IMG/VR virus record: IMGVR_UViG_3300042311_000626
Location: 64,001-86,468 of that record
Reading direction: 5' to 3' (one strand)
Source of the DNA: a virus
Taxonomy: Duplodnaviria; Heunggongvirae; Uroviricota; Caudoviricetes
DNA length: 22,468 bases
Part shown: in pieces, positions 1,181-13,672 of the stretch
How the letters are laid out: every line of letters starts with the position of its first letter
How positions within the stretch are numbered: the first letter of the stretch is position 1
Notes under the pieces: generated by a model
Told to the model about the DNA's origin: nothing
The model's input: the letters and a program-made list of their open reading frames with translations, nothing else
Database searches by the model: none
Made by a program: the position numbers and the translations under genes

Positions 1181-1786
1181 ATGAGTTCAAACCATCACAC
1201 TGATGAGGTTTTTATTTACTTATTAGAATTAGAAGATAATAAAGTATATATAGGTAAAACTGTTAATCCTTCTCATAGATTTTATTCCCATAAAAAATCT
1301 AAAAATGTAATACAATTTACTATAATAGATAAAGTACCTAACTCTGAATGGAAATATTGGGAAAAATTTTATATAGAATTATTTAAAACTTGGGAATTTA
1401 AATTAGATAATAAAAATAATGGTGGAGGAGGACCTTCAAAAGGTCGATATTTAAGAAGCAAAGACCAAAATTGGAAAAATAATTTAAGTAAATCTCATAA
1501 AGGTAAAATTATTACTTCTGAAACACGTTTAAAAATGAGCAAATCTCATTTGAATAAACCATCACCATTTAAAGGTCAAACCCATACCTCTCAAACTTGT
1601 AAAATTATTAGTAAATCATTATCAAAATCTGTATTACAATATGATATTGATGGTAATTTACTTAATACTTTTACTAGCATAAAAGAAGCAGCTTTACAAA
1701 CCAAAACTAACAAAACCAGTATTTCGGGAGCATGCTCGGGAAAATATAAAAAAGTCGGAGGATATATCTGGAAGTATAATAACTAA
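1181..1786 (+). CDS. Free-standing GIY-YIG homing endonuclease with NUMOD3-like repeats and a C-terminal NUMOD1/IENR1 HTH
   Basis: FIYLL...VYIGKT...RFYSH (GIY-YIG), E in WEKFYIE, N in LDNKN; LSKSHKGK..SETRLKMSKS (NUMOD3-like); VLQYDIDGNLLNTFTSIKEAA...ISGAC.GK.K..GGYIW (NUMOD1). Confidence 0.9.
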   Translation: MSSNHHTDEVFIYLLELEDNKVYIGKTVNPSHRFYSHKKSKNVIQFTIIDKVPNSEWKYWEKFYIELFKTWEFKLDNKNNGGGGPSKGRYLRSKDQNWKNNLSKSHKGKIITSETRLKMSKSHLNKPSPFKGQTHTSQTCKIISKSLSKSVLQYDIDGNLLNTFTSIKEAALQTKTNKTSISGACSGKYKKVGGYIWKYNN

Positions 1787-3551: not shown

Positions 3552-4580
3552 ATGGCAAATTGGAAAAAAGTCGTTGTATCCGGTAGTAACGTCTCTCAAC
3601 TAAACAATGATGCAAACTATTTAACGGCAGGTACATTAATAACCCCTAACGCTTTTAGTACAGCATCGTTTGACGGTACATTATTATTAGCAGATTCACC
3701 TTCAGGAAGTTTAAATTTTGCATCTTCGTCAGGACAAGGTTTAACTATTACAGCTAATGCTGGATCAGATACTTTAACATTTGGTTTATCCGCTATACCT
3801 AACAATAGTTTAGCCAATTCAGCTATCACAATAGCAGGTACATCAGTATCATTAGGTGGAAGTATTACACAAGCTACTATATTAGCAGGTTCAGGAGTAT
3901 TTTCAGGATCAGCTCAATTACCAGCAGGATTAGTATCAGGATCATCTCAAATTAACTATTCAGGAATAACAGGAGTACCAGCAAATATAATATCATCTTC
4001 TGTTTTATCTTCACCAGCTCAAGGTCAAGCTTTACTTACTACAAATGGTGTAGCAGGTTCTACAATTGATTTAGGATTAGAAACAGGAGATAGTCCATCA
4101 TTCGCAGGTGTAACAGCAGGTAATGTTACAGTAGGTGTTACAAATGATAATACAATTACTACAACAACTGGAGACTTAACAGTAACTTCAGCTGGAGGTA
4201 ACGTAACTATATCAAATAATTTAGTTGTAACTAATAACTTAACAGTACAAGGTACAGCATCTTTCCAAAATACAACTAACTTAGAAGTAGCTGATAGATT
4301 TATCTTAATGGCTTCTGGTTCGAATACAACTGGAGATGGTGGTATTGTAGTACAACAAGACACACAAAACATTGGTGAATTATTTGGATGGGATTCAGGA
4401 GCATCAAGATGGGCAGTAACAGGTTCATTTACAGCAAATAACTCTGCATTTACACCAGACGCTTATATGGCCGCCGTTGTAACAGCAGCAGGAACAACAC
4501 CAACACCAGCAACCAGATATAACGCAGTAGGTAATATTTACGTATCAAGTGGCGACGAAAGTATTTGGATATATTCATAA
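3552..4580 (+). CDS. Putative fibre/virion structural protein (342 aa, S/T/G/N-rich)
   Basis: N-terminus MANWKKVVVSGSN is shared with the 1527-aa fibre. LTVQGT...TTNLEVADRFILMASG..TGDGGIVV is a beta-rich fibre-like segment. Confidence 0.65.
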   Translation: MANWKKVVVSGSNVSQLNNDANYLTAGTLITPNAFSTASFDGTLLLADSPSGSLNFASSSGQGLTITANAGSDTLTFGLSAIPNNSLANSAITIAGTSVSLGGSITQATILAGSGVFSGSAQLPAGLVSGSSQINYSGITGVPANIISSSVLSSPAQGQALLTTNGVAGSTIDLGLETGDSPSFAGVTAGNVTVGVTNDNTITTTTGDLTVTSAGGNVTISNNLVVTNNLTVQGTASFQNTTNLEVADRFILMASGSNTTGDGGIVVQQDTQNIGELFGWDSGASRWAVTGSFTANNSAFTPDAYMAAVVTAAGTTPTPATRYNAVGNIYVSSGDESIWIYS

Positions 4581-4597
4581 AAAATAAAAAAATTGTT

Positions 4598-4804
4598 ATG
4601 AGCTTTAATGCACAAAACGTAGTTGTAAAAGACAAAACTACATCTAATATAGAAAATACTCTATCTCCTAATCAATTAAATGTGAAGGAGATAGAGATTT
4701 TACTTTCTTTAATAAGAAGATCAACTTTCCTTGGAGAAGACCTAGAACCTTTGTACAATATGGTTATTAAACTACAAAACCAATATTTAGAACAAACAAA
4801 ATAA
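4598..4804 (+). CDS. Small helical protein (68 aa), possible fibre assembly chaperone
   Basis: Start moved from 4565 (overlaps the upstream gene) to ATG 4598 after an A-rich leader. Shares an ExxxLxS...GxD...KL pattern with the next gene. Confidence 0.6.
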   Translation: MSFNAQNVVVKDKTTSNIENTLSPNQLNVKEIEILLSLIRRSTFLGEDLEPLYNMVIKLQNQYLEQTK

Positions 4805-4812
4805 CATAAGTT

Positions 4813-5049
4813 ATGGATTTATTTGAAATCAACCTTACTTTTAATGAATTGACCTTTTTAAGATCTGCTTTAGATCCTATTTCTATTCAAGGTAGAGATG
4901 CTCGTTTTGTAGCTTCACTACAAATGAAATTAGAGCAAGAAATTGAAGAAGTAAAACGTATGCTTCAAGACGCAGAAACTCAAAAAATGGAAAGTCTTCA
5001 AGACGCTATAAAAGAAGATCAAAAAATTAACAAAAGACCCACAAAATAA
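4813..5049 (+). CDS. Small helical/coiled-coil protein (78 aa), possible fibre assembly chaperone
   Basis: Clean ORF 8 nt after the previous stop, with a charged heptad-like C-terminus. Paralogous motif with 4598..4804. Confidence 0.65.
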   Translation: MDLFEINLTFNELTFLRSALDPISIQGRDARFVASLQMKLEQEIEEVKRMLQDAETQKMESLQDAIKEDQKINKRPTK

Positions 5050-5132
5050 CATAAATAAAATGCATTACATCAATGGTATCAACATTGGTGCGAGGTAATA
5101 TACTTCTTATATTTTATTTGTTTAGATCGCAT

Positions 5133-5141
5133 ATATTTATA
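5133..5141 (+). promoter_or_regulatory. ATATTTATA motif, putative late promoter element
   Basis: Intergenic. About 10 nt upstream of a GC-richer structured segment and 68 nt before ATG 5210. Confidence 0.5.
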
Positions 5142-5150
5142 TTATATATT

Positions 5151-5196
5151 ATAGATCCCTAATGGGAAGTGGGCAGGCAATCCTGTAACCAATCAT
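5151..5196 (+). ncRNA. Candidate structured 5' leader RNA (possible three-way junction), family unassigned
   Basis: CCC-TAAT-GGG hairpin (5157-5166), AAG linker, TGG/CCA plus GCAGG-CAAT-CCTGT hairpin (5170-5191), closed by GAT/ATC (5154-56/5192-94). It is a GC-richer island in a very AT-rich spacer. Confidence 0.4.
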
Positions 5197-5209
5197 AATA
5201 CTACTTAAT

Positions 5210-5926
5210 ATGAATAACTTTTACGTGTACAGTCACATTAAAAAAACTGATGGAAAATGTTTTTATATAGGTAAAGGAACAGGAAATAGAGCCTTTACTT
5301 CTTCTTCTCGAAATAGATACTGGAATGAAATAGTTAATAAACATGGGTTTGTATCTATTATTTTAATTAATAATATATCTGAAGAAAAAGCATTTGAAAT
5401 AGAATCCCAATTTTGTAACCAAATTGGTTATAAAAATCTTACTAATATAAGAAAAGAAACTGGTTGGGGAGGTCATTCACACCAACCTGAAACTATATTA
5501 AAATTATCAAAGCCTATTTTTCAATATGATTTACAAGGAAATCTTGTAAAAAGATGGGAAAGTGCTACTTTAGCTTCCCAATTTTTTGGAAAAAATTCAC
5601 CAGCAGCCATTACGGAATGTTGTAGAGGGATTAGAAAAAGTATATATGGGTTTAAATGGAGACATATAGATAATCCTATAAATGAGTCTCCTAAACATAT
5701 AGTTAAAAAATTTAAAAAAGAAAAAATACCTCCTTATTATAATCCTATAAATCAATATGATTTAAAAGGCAATTTTATAAAAACATGGACTAATATAAAA
5801 GAAGCATCTCATATGTTAAAAATTAAAACTAGTTCTATTTCACAATGTGTAAATGGAAAATATAAAACATCTGGAGGTTTTGTTTGGTCAAAACTATTAA
5901 ATAAGGAAGGAGGTCATTTTGCCTAG
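5210..5926 (+). CDS. Free-standing GIY-YIG homing endonuclease with two NUMOD1/IENR1 HTH domains
   Basis: FYVYSH...CFYIGKG.GNRA, EEKAFEIE, LTN..K.TG.GG; two copies of PI.QYDL.GN..K.W......A......I..C..G..K...GF.W. Confidence 0.9.
   Translation: MNNFYVYSHIKKTDGKCFYIGKGTGNRAFTSSSRNRYWNEIVNKHGFVSIILINNISEEKAFEIESQFCNQIGYKNLTNIRKETGWGGHSHQPETILKLSKPIFQYDLQGNLVKRWESATLASQFFGKNSPAAITECCRGIRKSIYGFKWRHIDNPINESPKHIVKKFKKEKIPPYYNPINQYDLKGNFIKTWTNIKEASHMLKIKTSSISQCVNGKYKTSGGFVWSKLLNKEGGHFA
5902..5914 (+). promoter_or_regulatory. Strong Shine-Dalgarno (AAGGAAGGAGGT) inside the endonuclease 3' end, serving the TTG start at 5919
   Basis: AGGAGG at 5908-5913, 5 nt before TTG 5919. No other gene start inspected in the window has a comparable SD. 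Confidence 0.65.
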
Positions 5927-8900
5927 TTGGAAAAAAGTCATAATTAGCGGCTCGAATGCTGCTTTAAATTCTCTTAATGTTTCAAACGGAATTACAGGTT
6001 CTTTATTTGGGACCGCTTCATTTGCCTCTAATGGAGGTGTAACTCAATTATTAGCAGGACCAAACATAACATTATCACCAACAAATGGTAAAGGTCAAGT
6101 TACAGTTTCATCAACTAGTGGTGGAGGTGGCTTTAATACAGCAACAGGATCTTACGGTAGTTTTTACGATACTACAACTCAAACTAATGTAGCAGGTACT
6201 GCTCGCTCAATGTCTTTCAATACGACAGATATTACAAATGGAGTATCAATATCAGGATCAACAAATCCTTTTAACACTTATATCAAGACTGAAAATGCAG
6301 GTGTATATGATATACAATTTTCTGCTCAAGTAGATAAAACAGATAGTGGTACAGATGAAATATGGATTTGGTTAAGAAAAAATGGAACAAATTTAACAGA
6401 TACTGCAACATCGATACAATTAGTTGGTAATGAAGCTCATTATGTAGCAGCATGGAATTTCTTTGTTAATTCAGCTGCAAATGATTATTATCAATTAATG
6501 TGGTATTCACCGGATGCTAACGTACGCTTACACGCAGAACCTGAATTTGGAGTAGTACCAGGTATTCCTTCAGTAATAGTAACAGCAAATAGAGTAGATC
6601 AATTCTTATCAAACACAGGTTCATTTACAGGCTCATTTACAGGAGTATTTACAGGTTCATTATTTGGAACATCTTCATTTGCTTCAACAGCACAAACAGC
6701 ATCATTTGTAACAGGATCAAACGTATTTGGGCCATTTGGTTCTAACAGTGTAATAAGTGCTTCTTTTGCTCAAACAGCATCATTCTTAAACAGTACAACA
6801 AATGCATTTATTCAAAACGGAAATTCATTTGGTACAACAGCATTATTAGGAACAAACGACAATCAACCACTTGCTTTAGAAACAAATGGAACAACTAGAA
6901 TGTTTATTTCTAGTAGTGGGGACGTAGGTATTGGAACGACAAGTCCAAATGGTAAGTTAGAAATTAGAGGAATTGAATCAAATACAAAAGATTTACTTTT
7001 AAATTTATCTAAATTTGCTTACGGAACAACACAATTTTATCAAAACTATTCAAATACATTTTACACTGCTGGAAAAAGTTTAGAAATTGAAGTTGAGGCT
7101 TTACCTTTATTACAATTAGCTGTTAACAATGCTGGTTCCCAAGGTAAAGTTATATTTCCAAACGGTAACGTAGGTATTGGAACAACAAGTCCTGGAGGTA
7201 AATTACATATTTCTGGTGCAGGTTCTGGCCTCGCATTAACTTTTGGTAATAGTGTTCCTAATAATCCTTTATTTATAAATACTTATGGGGATTGGAGTGG
7301 AATTGGTATGGATCAATCAAATGCTGGTCTTAGGCTTGTTGGAGATTATACTAGTGGAGCTTCATTAGTTGATATAGGATATTACTCATCAGGTACAGTA
7401 TCTCATGCTAATTGGGTTAGTAAGGTTAAAGTAATGCAGAGTGGTAACGTAGGTATTGGTACAACAAGTCCAACTTACAAATTTGAAGTAAGTGATGGTA
7501 CAAGAACAGGAGTAATAAACCCAAACTCAGGGTTAGACGCAATCTTTATAGGGGTTACTCAATCCAAACCATTAATTTTTGGAACTGGTGACACAGAAAG
7601 AATGCGTATTACTTCAGCAGGTAACGTACTAATAGGTACAACCACAGATGGTGGAAATAGGCTTGAAGTAGTTGGGACAGCAAATAATTGGGCAGGAAGC
7701 TTTACAGGAAATACAACAACTGGCCAATCTTATGGAGCAATTGTAAGAGGTGGAACAAATAGTTCAGATGTTGCTTTTAATGTAAATAACGCAGCAAATT
7801 CAACAACCTACCTTAACGTAAGAGGAGATGGTAACGTAGGAATTGGAACAACTTCGCCTGATGCTCCATTAGATATTGAGAATACAAATGCAACATCTAT
7901 AATTTACCAAAGAACAGGTGTATCTGCTAAGAAATGGGGTTTTGTTAGTGATAATAGTAATACTTATTGGAGCAATATAACTGATAACACATTACCGTTT
8001 ACATTAAGTAATAGCGGTAACGTAGGTATTGGAACAACAGGCCCTTCTCAAAAATTAGATGTAAGCGGAAGTGCTTATATTGCTGGTAATATTATTCTTC
8101 CTCAAAACCCTACAGGTACTACATATGGAAATGGTGTGTCTGCCTCTCCTCCATATATGATAAATCAAGGAGCAGGTGATAATGACGCTATACGATTCTA
8201 TGCAGAATCTGCTGCTACTAATCAGGTAAGTATGGTATTTGAGGTAAACGATGATATAGAAACTGCCGGTAGTGAATGGATATGGAGAAATAAAAAAACT
8301 TATGGAGGCTATGAAGCTACTACTCCTATGCGCCTTAGTGGGGCAGGTGAATTAGAGGTTTCAAAAATTGTAGCTACATCAATAACAGGTTCTTTATTAG
8401 GGACAGCATCATTTGCTCAAACAGCATCATTCTTAAACAGTACAACAAACGCCTTTATACAAAACGGAAATTCATTTGGAACAACAGCATTATTAGGAAC
8501 AAATGATAATCAACCACTTGCTTTAGAGACTAATGGAACAACTAGAATGTTTATTTCTAGTAGTGGTGACGTAGGTATTGGAACGACAAGTTCATTAGGG
8601 CCATTAGAGGTATATAGAGGAAATTCTGGCGGATTAGGTGGACATATTATTGTAAATAATAATGGATTAGCAATTGGTAGTTCAACCGCTTTAATGTTTG
8701 GAGATGGTCCTATAAACGGTATTCGTGGTGCAATTTCAACAACTACAGAAGACTCTCCGTACTATGGGCAGATGGACTTTAAGACAGGTGCTGATATTTA
8801 TAGTAATTTGTTTACAAGAATGACTATAAAAGGAAACGGTAACGTAGGTATTGGAACAACAAGTCCATCTTATAAATTAGATGTTTTAGGAGATATTGGA

Positions 8901-10502
8901 GCTTATGCAAATGGAGACAACAACGGATTTATTGGTACGGCAGGAGGTACGCATATACTTTCTCTAACAAGGTCTACAAATAATGCAAAATTAGCAGGAT
9001 ATGATGGAGTTATTTTTTATACAAATGCAACTACATTAGCAGGAGGTAGTGAAAGAATGCGAATCACTTCAGCAGGTGATGTAGGAATTGGAACAACAAG
9101 TCCTAACAGGCTATTAACAGTAGCTGGAACAACATCAGGATTAATAGCTCTAAATGCTTCAAGTTATAGAAATACAACAATAGGTTCGGATTCTGTAGGT
9201 AATTTTATTGTATATGATGATACTGCATCTTCATATAGAATGGTGATTAATTCATCAGGTAACGTAGGTATTGGAACGACAACACCGCAAAGAAAACTAG
9301 ACGTAATATCAGGAGCTAATAATTTTGTTTCTGTGGGGATAGATGCTGTAGCAGTTGGACAATGGGCTGGTCTTCATTTTGGATATGCAGAAGGTGCTAA
9401 TAACTTGTATAGAAAATCTGCAATAGTCTTTGAAAGAACAGATTTAACATCAAATAACGCTCAAGGAAAAGTACACATATTAAACGGGCCTCAAGGAAAT
9501 GCAGATAGTGCTACTTTAGCTGATTCTAAGTTAACAATTGCAGAAAACGGCAACGTTGGTATTGGAACAACAAATCCATTATATAAATTAGATGTTAATG
9601 GCACTGGAAGATTTTCAAGCGATCTATTAACAAATGCTAGATTTGGTGTTGGTAGTACAAATATAAACTCTAGAGTGTTTGCATCTGCTTTTTCAGGGGA
9701 ACTTGCAACCGCTATCTTTACAACATTTGATAGTGCTCAAGGTACACAAGAAGCGGCTAGATTTTCAACATCTGACCTTACTACTGGAGCTGTAAGAATT
9801 TACCCTCGTGTTGGGGTAGCAAATTTTAATGGAATAACTGTAGCAGATAGTGCAGTTATAGTTAATGCTACAACTAAACCAATACTTTTAGGAGTACAGG
9901 ATGGTTCAGCTGTTCAATTTACAGAAACAGATATTCGCATTGGAACTAATAATTCAGAAAAAATGCGTATCACTTCATCTGGAAATGTAGGTATTGGAAT
10001 ATCAACACCTACCTTAGGAACTTTACAAGTAAATGGAAATGTATTTGCAACTTCATTTACAGGTTCTTTACAAGTAACTAGTAGTCTTTCTTATAATAGC
10101 TCATTATCTACTTCTAACGTAAATGGAGAAATAGCATATTGGGGAGGAGGAACAGTAGCAGCAGGAACACTATACTATTATGATTCATCAGGAAACTGGA
10201 CAGCAGCAGATGCTGATGCTGAATCTACATCAACAGGAATGTTAGGAATAGCATTAGCAGCAGGAACAGCTTCAACAGTAGGAATACTATTAAGAGGACA
10301 TGCTAGATTTACAGGAGTATCAAGTTTTACAGGAACTACTACAGTAGGAGCAAAATTATATGTATCGACAACAGCCGGAGCATTTTCACAAACAGCACCA
10401 ACAGGTACAGGAGATGTCGTTAGAATAATAGGATATGTACAAAGTACAGCAAATGATCAAATTTATTTCTGCCCAGATACAACTTGGGTTACATTATTAT
10501 AA
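5919..10502 (+). CDS. Long modular fibre protein (1527 aa, TTG start): shared N-terminus, C1q/BclA-like jelly-roll, 12 GNVGIGTT-type repeat units, C-terminal capsid-cement/decoration-like domain
   Basis: TTG CCT AGT TGG AAA AAA gives MPSWKKV. G(N/D)V(G/L)IG(T/I)(T/S) recurs 12 times between ~6918 and ~9995. C1q-like segment at 6153-6596; ADAD...GMLGIA...YVSTTAG...TAP..G..VR.IG at 10122-10499. Confidence 0.85.
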   Translation: MPSWKKVIISGSNAALNSLNVSNGITGSLFGTASFASNGGVTQLLAGPNITLSPTNGKGQVTVSSTSGGGGFNTATGSYGSFYDTTTQTNVAGTARSMSFNTTDITNGVSISGSTNPFNTYIKTENAGVYDIQFSAQVDKTDSGTDEIWIWLRKNGTNLTDTATSIQLVGNEAHYVAAWNFFVNSAANDYYQLMWYSPDANVRLHAEPEFGVVPGIPSVIVTANRVDQFLSNTGSFTGSFTGVFTGSLFGTSSFASTAQTASFVTGSNVFGPFGSNSVISASFAQTASFLNSTTNAFIQNGNSFGTTALLGTNDNQPLALETNGTTRMFISSSGDVGIGTTSPNGKLEIRGIESNTKDLLLNLSKFAYGTTQFYQNYSNTFYTAGKSLEIEVEALPLLQLAVNNAGSQGKVIFPNGNVGIGTTSPGGKLHISGAGSGLALTFGNSVPNNPLFINTYGDWSGIGMDQSNAGLRLVGDYTSGASLVDIGYYSSGTVSHANWVSKVKVMQSGNVGIGTTSPTYKFEVSDGTRTGVINPNSGLDAIFIGVTQSKPLIFGTGDTERMRITSAGNVLIGTTTDGGNRLEVVGTANNWAGSFTGNTTTGQSYGAIVRGGTNSSDVAFNVNNAANSTTYLNVRGDGNVGIGTTSPDAPLDIENTNATSIIYQRTGVSAKKWGFVSDNSNTYWSNITDNTLPFTLSNSGNVGIGTTGPSQKLDVSGSAYIAGNIILPQNPTGTTYGNGVSASPPYMINQGAGDNDAIRFYAESAATNQVSMVFEVNDDIETAGSEWIWRNKKTYGGYEATTPMRLSGAGELEVSKIVATSITGSLLGTASFAQTASFLNSTTNAFIQNGNSFGTTALLGTNDNQPLALETNGTTRMFISSSGDVGIGTTSSLGPLEVYRGNSGGLGGHIIVNNNGLAIGSSTALMFGDGPINGIRGAISTTTEDSPYYGQMDFKTGADIYSNLFTRMTIKGNGNVGIGTTSPSYKLDVLGDIGAYANGDNNGFIGTAGGTHILSLTRSTNNAKLAGYDGVIFYTNATTLAGGSERMRITSAGDVGIGTTSPNRLLTVAGTTSGLIALNASSYRNTTIGSDSVGNFIVYDDTASSYRMVINSSGNVGIGTTTPQRKLDVISGANNFVSVGIDAVAVGQWAGLHFGYAEGANNLYRKSAIVFERTDLTSNNAQGKVHILNGPQGNADSATLADSKLTIAENGNVGIGTTNPLYKLDVNGTGRFSSDLLTNARFGVGSTNINSRVFASAFSGELATAIFTTFDSAQGTQEAARFSTSDLTTGAVRIYPRVGVANFNGITVADSAVIVNATTKPILLGVQDGSAVQFTETDIRIGTNNSEKMRITSSGNVGIGISTPTLGTLQVNGNVFATSFTGSLQVTSSLSYNSSLSTSNVNGEIAYWGGGTVAAGTLYYYDSSGNWTAADADAESTSTGMLGIALAAGTASTVGILLRGHARFTGVSSFTGTTTVGAKLYVSTTAGAFSQTAPTGTGDVVRIIGYVQSTANDQIYFCPDTTWVTLL
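6759..6944 (+). repeat. 186-nt direct repeat, copy 1 (62 codons)
   Basis: Encodes ASFAQTASF...GDVGIGTTS, identical in protein to 8406-8591. 11 synonymous differences by manual codon comparison. Confidence 0.95.
8406..8591 (+). repeat. 186-nt direct repeat, copy 2
   Basis: Manual alignment to 6759-6944: 175/186 nt identical, 62/62 aa identical. Confidence 0.95.
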
Positions 10503-12499: not shown

Positions 12500-13672
12500 A
12501 TGGCAGACATCCCAGTATATAATGGTTCATCTCAATTCTTTCCAGGAGATACAGCCTTTGGTTTCTACGATTATCAATATGATTTTCAAATAGATGCTGA
12601 TAAGATTGTAACTTTTGTTACTCAACGTTTAGGATGGCCTATAGAAGTAGTTGAATTACAACCAATTCAAATATATACTGCTTTTGAAGAAGCAGTTACT
12701 GTGTATGGAAATGAAGTTTATCAATTTCAAATTAGAGAAAACATGCTTTCTCTTGAAGGAAACCAAACAGGTTCAGTTCCTTACAACCAACTATTATTAA
12801 CTCCTTCATTAGGAGGTGCTATTCGTATAGCAGAAAATTATGCTGAAGAAGCAGGAGTAGGGGGTAATGTAACTTGGTATAGTGGTTCTATTCTATTAGA
12901 AGGAGGTGTCCAAGAATACGACTTAAATAAGTGGGCACGCGAATCAGCTTCGCTAGCTTCTGGCGATTACATTGAAGTTAAACGCGTATTCTTTGAAGCG
13001 CCGCCAGCTGCGTTAAGATACTTTGACCCGTACGTAGGTATCGGTTATAGTTACGAAGGATTGCTAAATAGTTTTGGTTTTGGAGCATATTCTCCTGCTA
13101 TTACATTCTTATTAATGCCGTTGTTTTTTGACTTACAACGTATTCAAGCTATTAAATTAAACGATCAAATTAGAAGAGCACAATTTTCATTTGAAATCCA
13201 CAATAACCAATTAAAAATATTCCCAGTCCCATTACAAAAATATCCACTTTGGTTCCAATATATTAAAGGATCTGAAAGAGATAGCGCTATAGGTGGACGA
13301 AACTCTGAAGGTGTTCCACAAACTAATTTAATTACTAATACATCTAATGTACCTTATACAAATCCTAACTACAATTATATAAATTCTGTAGGAAGAATGT
13401 GGGTTTATCAATATACTTTAGCACTTTGTAGAGAAGTTTTAGGATATGTTCGAGGAAAATATTCAACTGTACCTATTCCTGGTTCAGAAGTAACATTAAA
13501 TCAAAATGATTTATTGACAGATGCTAGAAGTCAAAAAGAATCATTACTAGCTCAATTAAGAGAAACATTAGATCAAACAGGAAGACAAAAACAATTAGAA
13601 AAACTAGCAGCTAATTCTGAGAATTTATTAAAAGTTTTAAACGACGTTCCTATGGGACTATATATATTTTAA
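12500..13672 (+). CDS. gp13: Neck/head-tail adaptor protein, T4 gp13-like
   Basis: RLGWPIEVVELQPIQIYTAFEEAV parallels gp13 RLG.PIINVEL...Q. WVYQYTLAL..E.LG..R.KY...PIPG..VTLN...L..DA..QKE.L..QL parallels the gp13 C-terminus. Confidence 0.82.
   Translation: MADIPVYNGSSQFFPGDTAFGFYDYQYDFQIDADKIVTFVTQRLGWPIEVVELQPIQIYTAFEEAVTVYGNEVYQFQIRENMLSLEGNQTGSVPYNQLLLTPSLGGAIRIAENYAEEAGVGGNVTWYSGSILLEGGVQEYDLNKWARESASLASGDYIEVKRVFFEAPPAALRYFDPYVGIGYSYEGLLNSFGFGAYSPAITFLLMPLFFDLQRIQAIKLNDQIRRAQFSFEIHNNQLKIFPVPLQKYPLWFQYIKGSERDSAIGGRNSEGVPQTNLITNTSNVPYTNPNYNYINSVGRMWVYQYTLALCREVLGYVRGKYSTVPIPGSEVTLNQNDLLTDARSQKESLLAQLRETLDQTGRQKQLEKLAANSENLLKVLNDVPMGLYIF

Follow-up and report, generated by a model that had tools for sequence, protein, structure and literature searches.

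A free-standing GIY-YIG endonuclease gene at the start of a tail fibre gene in an Immutovirus-like phage, with an extended Shine-Dalgarno sequence at the junction

The endonuclease-fibre junction

We analysed the start of a tail fibre gene in an uncultured lake phage (Caudoviricetes), where the gene for a GIY-YIG homing endonuclease overlaps the 5′ end of the fibre gene. The window, meaning the whole stretch of DNA that was analysed, comprises 22,468 nucleotides (nt; positions 64,001 to 86,468 of IMG/VR record IMGVR_UViG_3300042311_000626) and is the right end of an 86-kb phage contig that is ~54% complete. Among its genes are those for a T4-type Gp23 capsid protein and PhoH, along with fibre and tail genes. 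The closest cultured relative is the Flavobacterium phage vB_FspM_immuto (hereafter immuto), with 89% amino acid identity in PhoH and 65% in the capsid protein. The phage is Immutovirus-like and of the T4 type, and its genes are otherwise without Shine-Dalgarno (SD) sites.

Two open reading frames (ORFs) meet at the junction; all features located below for the junction and its leader lie on the + strand. The endonuclease ORF (5210–5926; 238 amino acids) begins at an ATG (5210..5212) behind an SD-less, A/T-rich upstream region. The fibre ORF (5919–10502; 1527 amino acids) is intact and begins at a TTG (5919..5921) within the 3′ end of the endonuclease gene. The endonuclease stop codon, TAG (5924–5926), lies five bases past the TTG and is made of fibre codons 2 and 3 (CCT AGT), and the two ORFs overlap by 8 nt. 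The last endonuclease codons (K-E-G-G) contain an extended SD sequence, AGGAAGGAGGT (5904..5914), which includes AGGAGG (5908–5913), 5 nt before the TTG. The TTG itself stands 4 nt past the extended SD and has an A at position −3. In the fibre frame there is a TAA at 5898, and the TTG is the only canonical start after it.

Removal of positions 5213–5921 (709 nt) in silico gives ATG CCT AGT TGG AAA AAA, and a paralogue at 3552 starts MANWKKV. These 709 nt consist of the endonuclease ORF in all but 8 nt. The first-pass annotation of this DNA, made from the sequence alone, had described the A-rich, SD-less endonuclease ATG, the TTG start 8 nt inside the endonuclease 3′ end with AGGAGG 5 nt before it, and the outcome of this deletion with its resemblance to the paralogue. 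All of these coordinates hold, the deletion does so base for base, and the arrangement is confirmed.

The endonuclease gene has its own stop codon, and the fibre gene lies in the +1 frame relative to it. A scan of positions 4900–6100 against Rfam at E values up to 1 gave no intron and no known leader family, only two sub-threshold chance matches. The endonuclease gene is thus free-standing, with no self-splicing intron and no intein as carrier. The fibre protein matched PHROG tail fibre families at E values of 1e-50 and 4e-43. Its relatives carry Peptidase_S74, its counterpart in immuto bears the annotation tail fiber-like protein, and the N-terminus xPSWKKV..SGS is kept in all relatives.

The endonuclease comprises a GIY-YIG catalytic domain (residues 1–80), two NUMOD1/I-HmuI-like DNA-binding repeats (residues 103–152 and 180–228) and a disordered tail (residues 229–238). 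In Pfam, NUMOD1 scored 46.4 bits (cut-off 22.8) and I-HmuI_NUMOD-like 32.8 bits (cut-off 27). LEM-3_GIY-YIG scored 25.5 bits, just below its 27-bit cut-off, so the GIY-YIG assignment rests on fold and motifs. The AlphaFold model, based on 34 homologues, has a predicted local distance difference test (pLDDT) score of 80.7, with the last ten residues below 50. It contains an N-terminal beta-beta-alpha-beta-alpha domain and two NUMOD-like beta-beta-alpha-alpha-beta repeats. In Foldseek searches, the N-terminal domain matched the I-TevI catalytic domain (1ln0; template modelling (TM) score 0.65, probability 1.0), the GIY-YIG domain of UvrC (TM 0.55) and PD-T4-3 (E = 4e-4), and the repeat matched I-HmuI (1u3e) with a root-mean-square deviation of 1.5 over 56 residues. 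Residues Y7, Y19, G21, R27, E58, E65 and N79 are invariant among 34 sequences. The protein therefore has both what defines the GIY-YIG family, the catalytic fold with its residues, and a separate DNA-binding module. Pairwise ratios of nonsynonymous to synonymous divergence (dN/dS) between endonuclease alleles were 0.19–0.35 at dS values of 0.57–1.3, which indicates purifying selection. Together with the invariant catalytic residues, these ratios point to selection for nuclease function.

The close clade of this endonuclease comprises 33 protein clusters in public data, with 62–88% amino acid identity, and all but one of the clusters end in ..L-N-K-(K/E)-G-G-x-(F/S/C)-A. Distant homologues (33–49% identity) are found at other loci; they end just after the last NUMOD strand (..WKYK or similar), without a tail and without overlapping a neighbour. 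Scans of IMG/VR and JGI data with the clade profile returned only ~10 clade loci, and the remaining, distant endonucleases from elsewhere served as outgroups. Among cultured phages, no member of the clade was found (best tblastn identity <31%). Some endonucleases at other loci (L017-L021, L215-L222; P0060, P0081-P0095) are 65–76% identical over the first 95–102 residues only, that is, over the catalytic domain, and their C-terminal halves differ. This pattern points to shuffling of catalytic and DNA-binding modules between endonucleases.

As to the host, the phage and its relatives are SD-less and the nearest cultured relative infects Flavobacterium, which makes a host of the Flavobacterium or Bacteroidota type likely. 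The first-pass annotation had made part of its argument conditional on such an SD-less host, and both the SD census given below and the kinship to immuto are in favour of it. Separately, proteins of the structural region of a related occupied contig (L287:1-1927) carry Fib_succ_major (PF09603) domains. These domains are typical of surface proteins of Bacteroidota and Fibrobacterota and give a weak additional clue to the host.

Occupied and empty alleles

A blastn comparison of positions 4500–7500 with cultured phages matched immuto only, in two pieces that are contiguous in immuto and 709 nt apart in the window. In immuto, a leader ~88–90% identical to that of the window runs directly into ATG CCA AGT TGG AAA AAA GTC. 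A pattern scan of IMG/VR for such empty loci, in which the first base of the start codon was left free, yielded another 37 loci that lack the endonuclease and have 33 distinct leaders between them. All 37 start with ATG, and codon 2 in the empty alleles is nearly always CCA (a few CCG and one CCT). The closest of the empty loci, L197, matches the window at 86–93% identity across most of 1.3 kb of upstream sequence, with a single 80-nt stretch at 65%.

Empty alleles were likewise found in lake water. Assembled contigs from three metagenome runs of different studies (X5, X6 and X7) join window position 5210 to position 5920, skipping 709 nt, and 2 letters at the joint fit both sides. One of these contigs is ~98% identical to the window over 520 nt upstream. 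Within the same runs, the contigs with the empty joint are 2–20 times as deep as the endonuclease segment; these depths are rough, as they come from assembled contigs only, and stretches without cover carry no meaning. Thus, the cassette is present or absent at one precise site, with 13 occupied and at least 37 empty alleles. Three leader subtypes include both occupied and empty alleles, the two forms occur together in single lake samples, and the divergence of the endonuclease roughly tracks the leader subtype.

Based on the empty alleles in immuto, in IMG/VR and in the lake contigs, the 709-nt cassette (5213..5921) is an insertion that directly follows the fibre start codon and has invaded the 5′ end of the fibre gene. 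Its boundaries can slide by 2 nt, as both junctions end in TG. The first-pass annotation had proposed exactly such an insertion, with the resident leader and ATG taken by the endonuclease, and had suggested an alignment of endonuclease-free relatives as a check. Its interpretation is supported: immuto, the 37 IMG/VR loci and the contigs of the three metagenomes read leader-ATG-CCA-AGT-TGG-AAA-AAA, with no insert. Empty relatives using an SD and a TTG, which it had named as contrary evidence, were not among them; SD-like leaders occur only in a sister group, and the start there is ATG.

Identity between phages is 88–95% at the insertion site and collapses ~80 nt to either side. The site is therefore a conserved island, the type of target that such enzymes choose. 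On the fibre side, only about the first 80 nt of the gene are conserved between phages, and the body is mosaic. Past about codon 25, the fibre bodies of close phages are unrelated (35–45% nucleotide identity for window positions 5986–10502 against L001, L112, L150, L152 and L197). The genes upstream in L197, by contrast, are mostly 86–93% identical to those of the window, and the endonuclease site falls on the recombination boundary of the mosaic fibre.

DNA was obtained for 13 distinct occupied alleles from the clade of 33 protein clusters. The structured leader runs into the endonuclease ATG in all 13. In every allele, the endonuclease starts at what is the ATG of the fibre gene in empty alleles, behind the fibre leader, and a TTG or GTG followed by P-S/N-W-K-K opens an intact fibre ORF. 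The fibre start is TTG in eight and GTG in five, and ATG in none, whereas the empty alleles all use ATG. On a tree of 34 proteins, the inferred start toggles between TTG and GTG at least 4–5 times (8–9 by parsimony) and never becomes ATG. A change to ATG would take one mutation and would alter the penultimate endonuclease residue only. The tail carries GGAG(G) 4–6 nt upstream of the fibre start in 12 of the 13 alleles. Codon 2 is CCT in 11 of the 13 (CCT AGT or CCT AAT), giving the endonuclease its TAG or TAA stop; a CCA at this codon would lengthen the endonuclease by 8 codons. The ORFs overlap by 8 nt in 11 of the 13 alleles and by 17 nt in L284, and in L285 they are separated by an 11-nt spacer, so that the stop lies near the start throughout, as in coupled gene pairs. 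The junction of L285 (L285:627-1468) reads ..WKKASKK, TAA, an 11-nt A-rich spacer and GTG GCA AAC TGG (MANWKK, like the window paralogue at 3552).

The cassette is thus polymorphic in nature, and comparison of the alleles shows its junctions to be conserved across a deep endonuclease clade. The replacement SD and non-ATG start of the first-pass annotation travel with the endonuclease lineage (13 alleles, 33 clusters). Residue 2 of the endonuclease is Pro in 20 of the 33 clade proteins, and the more distant homologues in the alignment lack this Pro. In allele L286, the endonuclease starts with ATG CCA AGT, that is, with fibre codons 1–3. Both observations suggest that the capture originally took more than the ATG. 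The avoidance of ATG and the use of CCT rather than CCA most likely make the right junction differ from the target or from the left junction, so that cleavage or precise excision is blocked, and bring the stop next to the restart codon.

The captured fibre 5′ leader (5150..5209) has two hairpins, two conserved blocks and an A/T-rich, SD-less stretch. Hairpin 1 pairs CCC (5157–5159) with GGG (5164–5166) and is followed by the conserved block GGAAGTGGGC (5165–5174); hairpin 2 pairs CAGG (5174–5177) with CCTG (5182–5185), and the block TAACCAATC comes after it within the leader. The leader is 88–95% identical to that of endonuclease-free alleles and occurs once in the window. Both hairpins are retained among the 33 distinct leaders through many compensatory stem changes. 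Such a structured 5′ leader precedes this fibre family in SD-using and SD-less phages alike (L001, L091-L198, L004-L211). Its layout is TATTATAG/TTTATTGG, hairpin 1 (CCC/GGG or CCT/AGG, at times longer), GGAAGTGGGC, hairpin 2 and TAACCAAYC. Hairpin 2 has at least 10 different compensatory stems, and Rfam holds no family for the leader. A promoter-like motif, ATATTTATA (5133..5141), lies 77 nt before the captured ATG. It is also found before the genes at 1181, 2535 and 12500, and there is no copy inside the endonuclease gene. ATATTTATA is likely a late promoter that now serves the endonuclease and the fibre gene jointly.

A second GIY-YIG gene in the window (1181–1786) shows a similar arrangement. 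Its first 11 codons (MSSNHHTDEVF) are identical in 30 of 33 nt to the 5′ end of immuto PhoH (MASNHHTDEVF-TPKRKPK..), and it stands behind the same promoter-like motif, ATATTTAT (region 1151–1850). The PhoH of the window (from 1800) has a substitute 13-residue N-terminus, MDHNRTLEAQKVF, and homology resumes at KEKRKPK. The restart codon here is ATG; it follows a 13-nt A/T spacer and lacks an SD. Judged by these alignments, the second endonuclease has captured the PhoH start. Taken together, the fibre and PhoH cases suggest that endonucleases have used start capture repeatedly in this SD-less phage; of the two, only the fibre cassette has the extended SD.

An extended Shine-Dalgarno sequence in SD-less phages

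The strength of SD pairing was evaluated for the 115–116 ORFs of the contig. Regions upstream of genes are depleted in SDs relative to background (mean ΔG of −1.1 vs −2.5). Using a 10-nt anti-SD, the fibre SD had a ΔG of −13.5, and the next best ORF reached −9.0. The fibre gene is thus the single outlier, in agreement with the first-pass annotation, which had called its SD the only strong one. We further used the 3′ tail of Flavobacterium-type 16S rRNA (13 nt), taken from an oligonucleotide in PMC13000453. Against this tail, ACCUCCUUUCU, the sequence AGGAAGGAGGT forms 11 consecutive pairs, one of them G-U, with a ΔG of −17.0; the next best ORF upstream region forms 7 pairs. Sites with at least 9 consecutive pairs number 11 across the contig, so that ~0.06 would be expected by chance at the correct distance from a gene start. 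A further 11-pair match to the 16S tail, the one such match in the contig besides the fibre SD, is at window positions 12899–12909 (AGAAGGAGGTGT). It is intragenic, no start codon follows it, and it is probably a chance match.

The same signal recurs in the other occupied alleles. In 12 of 13, the SD forms 9–11 consecutive pairs with a ΔG of −13.4 to −17.5 and a spacer of 4–6 nt, which places these sites within the class described for rpsU (at least 9 pairs and a ΔG below about −13 kcal/mol; PMC13000453). At related occupied loci, none of 29 other genes reaches −7, and in immuto no correctly placed SD was found in the 50 kb examined. The rpsU SD of Flavobacteriales, described by the Fredrick laboratory, has 9–13 pairs and a ΔG below −13, and rpsU is the only Flavobacteriales gene described with an SD of this class. 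It is functional in Flavobacterium, where a 13-bp helix between the SD and the anti-SD sterically excludes bS21 and frees the sequestered anti-SD (PMC9976891, PMC13000453, PMC13000457).

Across 12 endonuclease alleles, only 3 of 31 invariant columns with four- or sixfold degenerate codons use a single codon, and two of these three are the tail Gly (GGA) and Ala (GCC). The tail Gly is GGA in 12 of 12, whereas 28 of the 29 other invariant columns vary. For the Lys that stands three codons before, AAG is chosen in 8 of 10 cases, against a usage of 11%, and the G of this codon lengthens the helix from 9 to 11 pairs. The residue after the Gly is G, D, V or A, and its codon always begins with G. These frozen synonymous sites argue for selection on the nucleotides of the tail, not on the peptide.

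The fibre family MPSWKK(V/L/I)..SGS also occurs in two groups of empty loci (L091-L198). In one group, the leader contains an AAGGAGA SD and the remaining genes have SDs as well, so that the hosts presumably use SDs; the second group is immuto-like and SD-less. One fibre gene module thus serves phages of SD-using and of SD-blind hosts. The occupied alleles are all in the SD-less group.

Proposed mechanism, alternatives and significance

We consider it probable, from the comparison of alleles, that a GIY-YIG/NUMOD1 cassette inserted between the ATG and codon 2 of the fibre gene takes over the leader and the ATG, and probably the promoter, and that its tail provides a substitute initiation region, the cassette combining homing with a restart of the fibre gene. 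In this scheme, the enzyme would cut the empty allele near the conserved island formed by the leader, the ATG and PSWKK, and the cassette would spread by double-strand-break repair late in infection. Insertion would split the target island and so protect occupied genomes. The endonuclease would be transcribed from the late promoter of the fibre gene and translated from the native, SD-less initiation region of that gene. Its last ten codons would double as the initiation region of the fibre gene, comprising an A-rich tract, the 11-bp extended SD, a 4-nt spacer with A at −3 and the TTG. The fibre protein would be made from the same late mRNA, either by ribosomes that end at the TAG and restart five bases upstream, or de novo through the extended SD, or by both routes. 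The de novo route would resemble the reading of rpsU in Flavobacterium, with the long SD-anti-SD helix displacing bS21.

The fibre gene may therefore initiate independently of the endonuclease, through an extended SD of the rpsU class working in Flavobacterium. RNA folds of the junction in 8 alleles gave no conserved or significant structure that hides the SD (z-scores of −1.3 to +1.3), and without a sequestering structure there is no computational argument for obligatory coupling. More tentatively, and at odds we would put clearly below even, the extended SD could be a true rpsU-type signal. A mobile element in an SD-blind, Flavobacterium-type host would then have independently evolved the one kind of SD readable by the ribosomes there, with a helix that evicts bS21 or requires its absence, and synthesis of an essential virion protein would be tied to the composition of the ribosome. 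The avoidance of ATG and CCA would, as part of the same proposal, reflect self-immunity or selection against excision. Searches for a phage-encoded bS21 (PF01165) in the 86-kb contig, in four related contigs and in the complete genome of immuto were all negative.

Several points weigh against a functional extended SD or, more generally, against the proposed scheme. Ribosomes of Bacteroidia sequester the anti-SD (PMC7797042), and those of Flavobacterium are largely SD-blind in initiation and in prfB frameshifting (PMC7797042, PMC10798248), where the SD is barely used. The fibre SD may therefore serve only a minority of the ribosomes. The A-rich tail and the A at −3, present in all 12 SD-bearing alleles, are Bacteroidia-type features that could suffice without pairing; the fold results above, which leave the junction unstructured, go the same way. 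Allele L285 has kept its endonuclease and has a GTG start with neither SD nor overlap; such a junction is evidently viable, so the SD is not indispensable. The promoter-like motif ATATTTATW was found 7 times, against 4.1 expected, and is neither enriched nor significant alone. Finally, the likely host was deduced from the lack of SDs and from relatedness to immuto, all occupied alleles come from metagenomes, and the TTG or GTG starts of the 20 clusters without DNA were deduced from the last two residues.

The strongest competing explanation, which we rate as rather unlikely, accepts the insertion but leaves the SD unused. Initiation would depend on Bacteroidia-type signals (upstream adenines, A at −3 and lack of structure), on plain termination-reinitiation, or on both, and GGAGG would be kept for the K-G-G peptide, for a DNA-level role that serves the endonuclease or as a mark of SD-using ancestry. 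The sequestered anti-SD (PMC7797042), the barely used prfB SD (PMC10798248), the viability of L285 and the A-rich, unstructured junction with its constant A at −3 all suit this explanation. It is harder to reconcile with synonymous positions that are frozen where the 16S rRNA pairs, including the GGA in 12 of 12 alleles and the rare AAG that in 8 of 10 extends the helix from 9 to 11 bp, or with a constant first G in the codon after the Gly when the residue itself varies (G, D, V or A). Moreover, the tail is predicted to be disordered and is missing in more distant homologues, a neutral relic would have been wiped out at dS values of 0.6–1.3, and extended SDs are functional for rpsU (PMC13000453).

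We judge it improbable that the endonuclease no longer homes and is a fixed passenger whose translation brings ribosomes to the fibre start, in a form of lock-in or domestication. Such a passenger would fit a fibre gene without start signals of its own, an endonuclease whose divergence follows the leader subtype as in a long vertical association, and a precise loss that requires an exact 709-nt deletion at a 2-nt microhomology. However, the need for an open frame alone would bring dN/dS near 1, and we measured 0.19–0.35 with invariant catalytic residues; occupied and empty alleles coexist in three leader subtypes and in single lake samples, with the empty ones commoner; and the extended SD may permit independent initiation. 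The lock-in of the fibre gene to the endonuclease put forward in the first-pass annotation may exist but is not needed to explain maintenance: dN/dS is well below 1, the catalytic residues are invariant and empty alleles are more abundant in the sampled lakes.

It is very improbable that the endonuclease arrangement is ancestral to the fibre family and that the empty alleles arose from it by repeated precise deletion. Such deletions could be mediated by the 2-nt TG microhomology or, in some alleles, by a longer xTG-CCN-AGT repeat at both junctions, but they would leave TTG or GTG followed by CCT, and what the 37 empty alleles have is ATG without exception, followed in nearly every case by CCA. 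In addition, the ATG-CCA empty alleles span SD-using and SD-less groups with far more leader diversity, the occupied ones are confined to SD-less phages, and the distant homologues of the clade (33–49% identity) lie at other loci. An endonuclease-fibre fusion by +1 frameshifting near CAT TTT GCC TAG, favoured by the +1 frame of the fibre gene and by a strong SD before the stop that loosely recalls the stimulating SD of prfB, is hardly credible, as the spacing from SD to stop and the pre-stop codon are unlike the prfB site, the L285 ORFs are parted by a stop and an 11-nt spacer, those of L284 overlap by 17 nt, and xPSWKK stands as the N-terminus in all empty alleles.

Compared with known systems, the proposed cassette resembles the free-standing GIY-YIG (Seg) and HNH (Mob) genes of T4-type phages: it is an optional ORF at a fixed site, flanked by sequences conserved among related phages, that uses the transcription signals of a host gene, with no intron or intein, and its product pairs a GIY-YIG catalytic domain with NUMOD-type DNA-binding modules. 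The seg and mob genes of T4 are intergenic; where they overlap a neighbour, it is the upstream ORF, which leaves the endonuclease as a weakly coupled, poorly translated second cistron (PMC2988022). In the present cassette the order is the opposite: the endonuclease occupies the start of the resident gene, and that gene would be the downstream cistron, translated from a restart. The protein also stands apart from the endonucleases of cultured phages, at less than 31% identity to any.

Insertions within coding regions are known as well. According to PMC2988022, mobE in nrdA of Aeh1, mobA in T4 gene 39/60 and seg43(25) split phage genes into two polypeptides that must reassemble. As in those cases, the endonuclease lies inside a coding region whose downstream part is given a new start; unlike in them, only 1–3 codons lie upstream and these are re-supplied, so that the fibre stays one complete protein. 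The mitochondrial atp6 of Allomyces, as outlined where Paquin et al. 1994 is cited in PMC4019555, is a hybrid gene with a mobile endonuclease ORF and a substitute C-terminus. By that account, the endonuclease ORF is fused in frame and the substitute gene end keeps the host gene functional; there the 3′ end of a mitochondrial gene is concerned, and here the 5′ end with a substitute initiation region. The likeness to rpsU of Flavobacteriales lies in an isolated, very strong SD in an otherwise SD-less genome (9–13 pairs for rpsU, and 9–11 with a ΔG of −13.4 to −17.5 for the fibre site). The differences are that the fibre site belongs to a phage and its mobile element and is embedded in a coding sequence, that its start is TTG or GTG and the upstream stop overlaps, that no autoregulatory logic is evident, and that its function is putative. 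Literature searches gave no precedent for a phage endonuclease that captures a gene start or supplies a coupled restart.

New here are the GIY-YIG lineage, the spare initiation region within the C-terminal codons of an endonuclease and, above all, an extended SD of the rpsU class in SD-less phages. The cassette would be a clean natural case of a selfish gene that both gets itself translated and spares an essential host gene. In practical terms, gene calling and annotation will place the start of such fibre genes wrongly, and receptor-binding genes with occupied and empty alleles are markers of recombination hot spots in phage populations. If the rpsU-type reading of the extended SD is true, this second, independently evolved and nucleotide-conserved extended SD would be a natural probe of bS21-free ribosomes, or of bS21 eviction, during phage infection.

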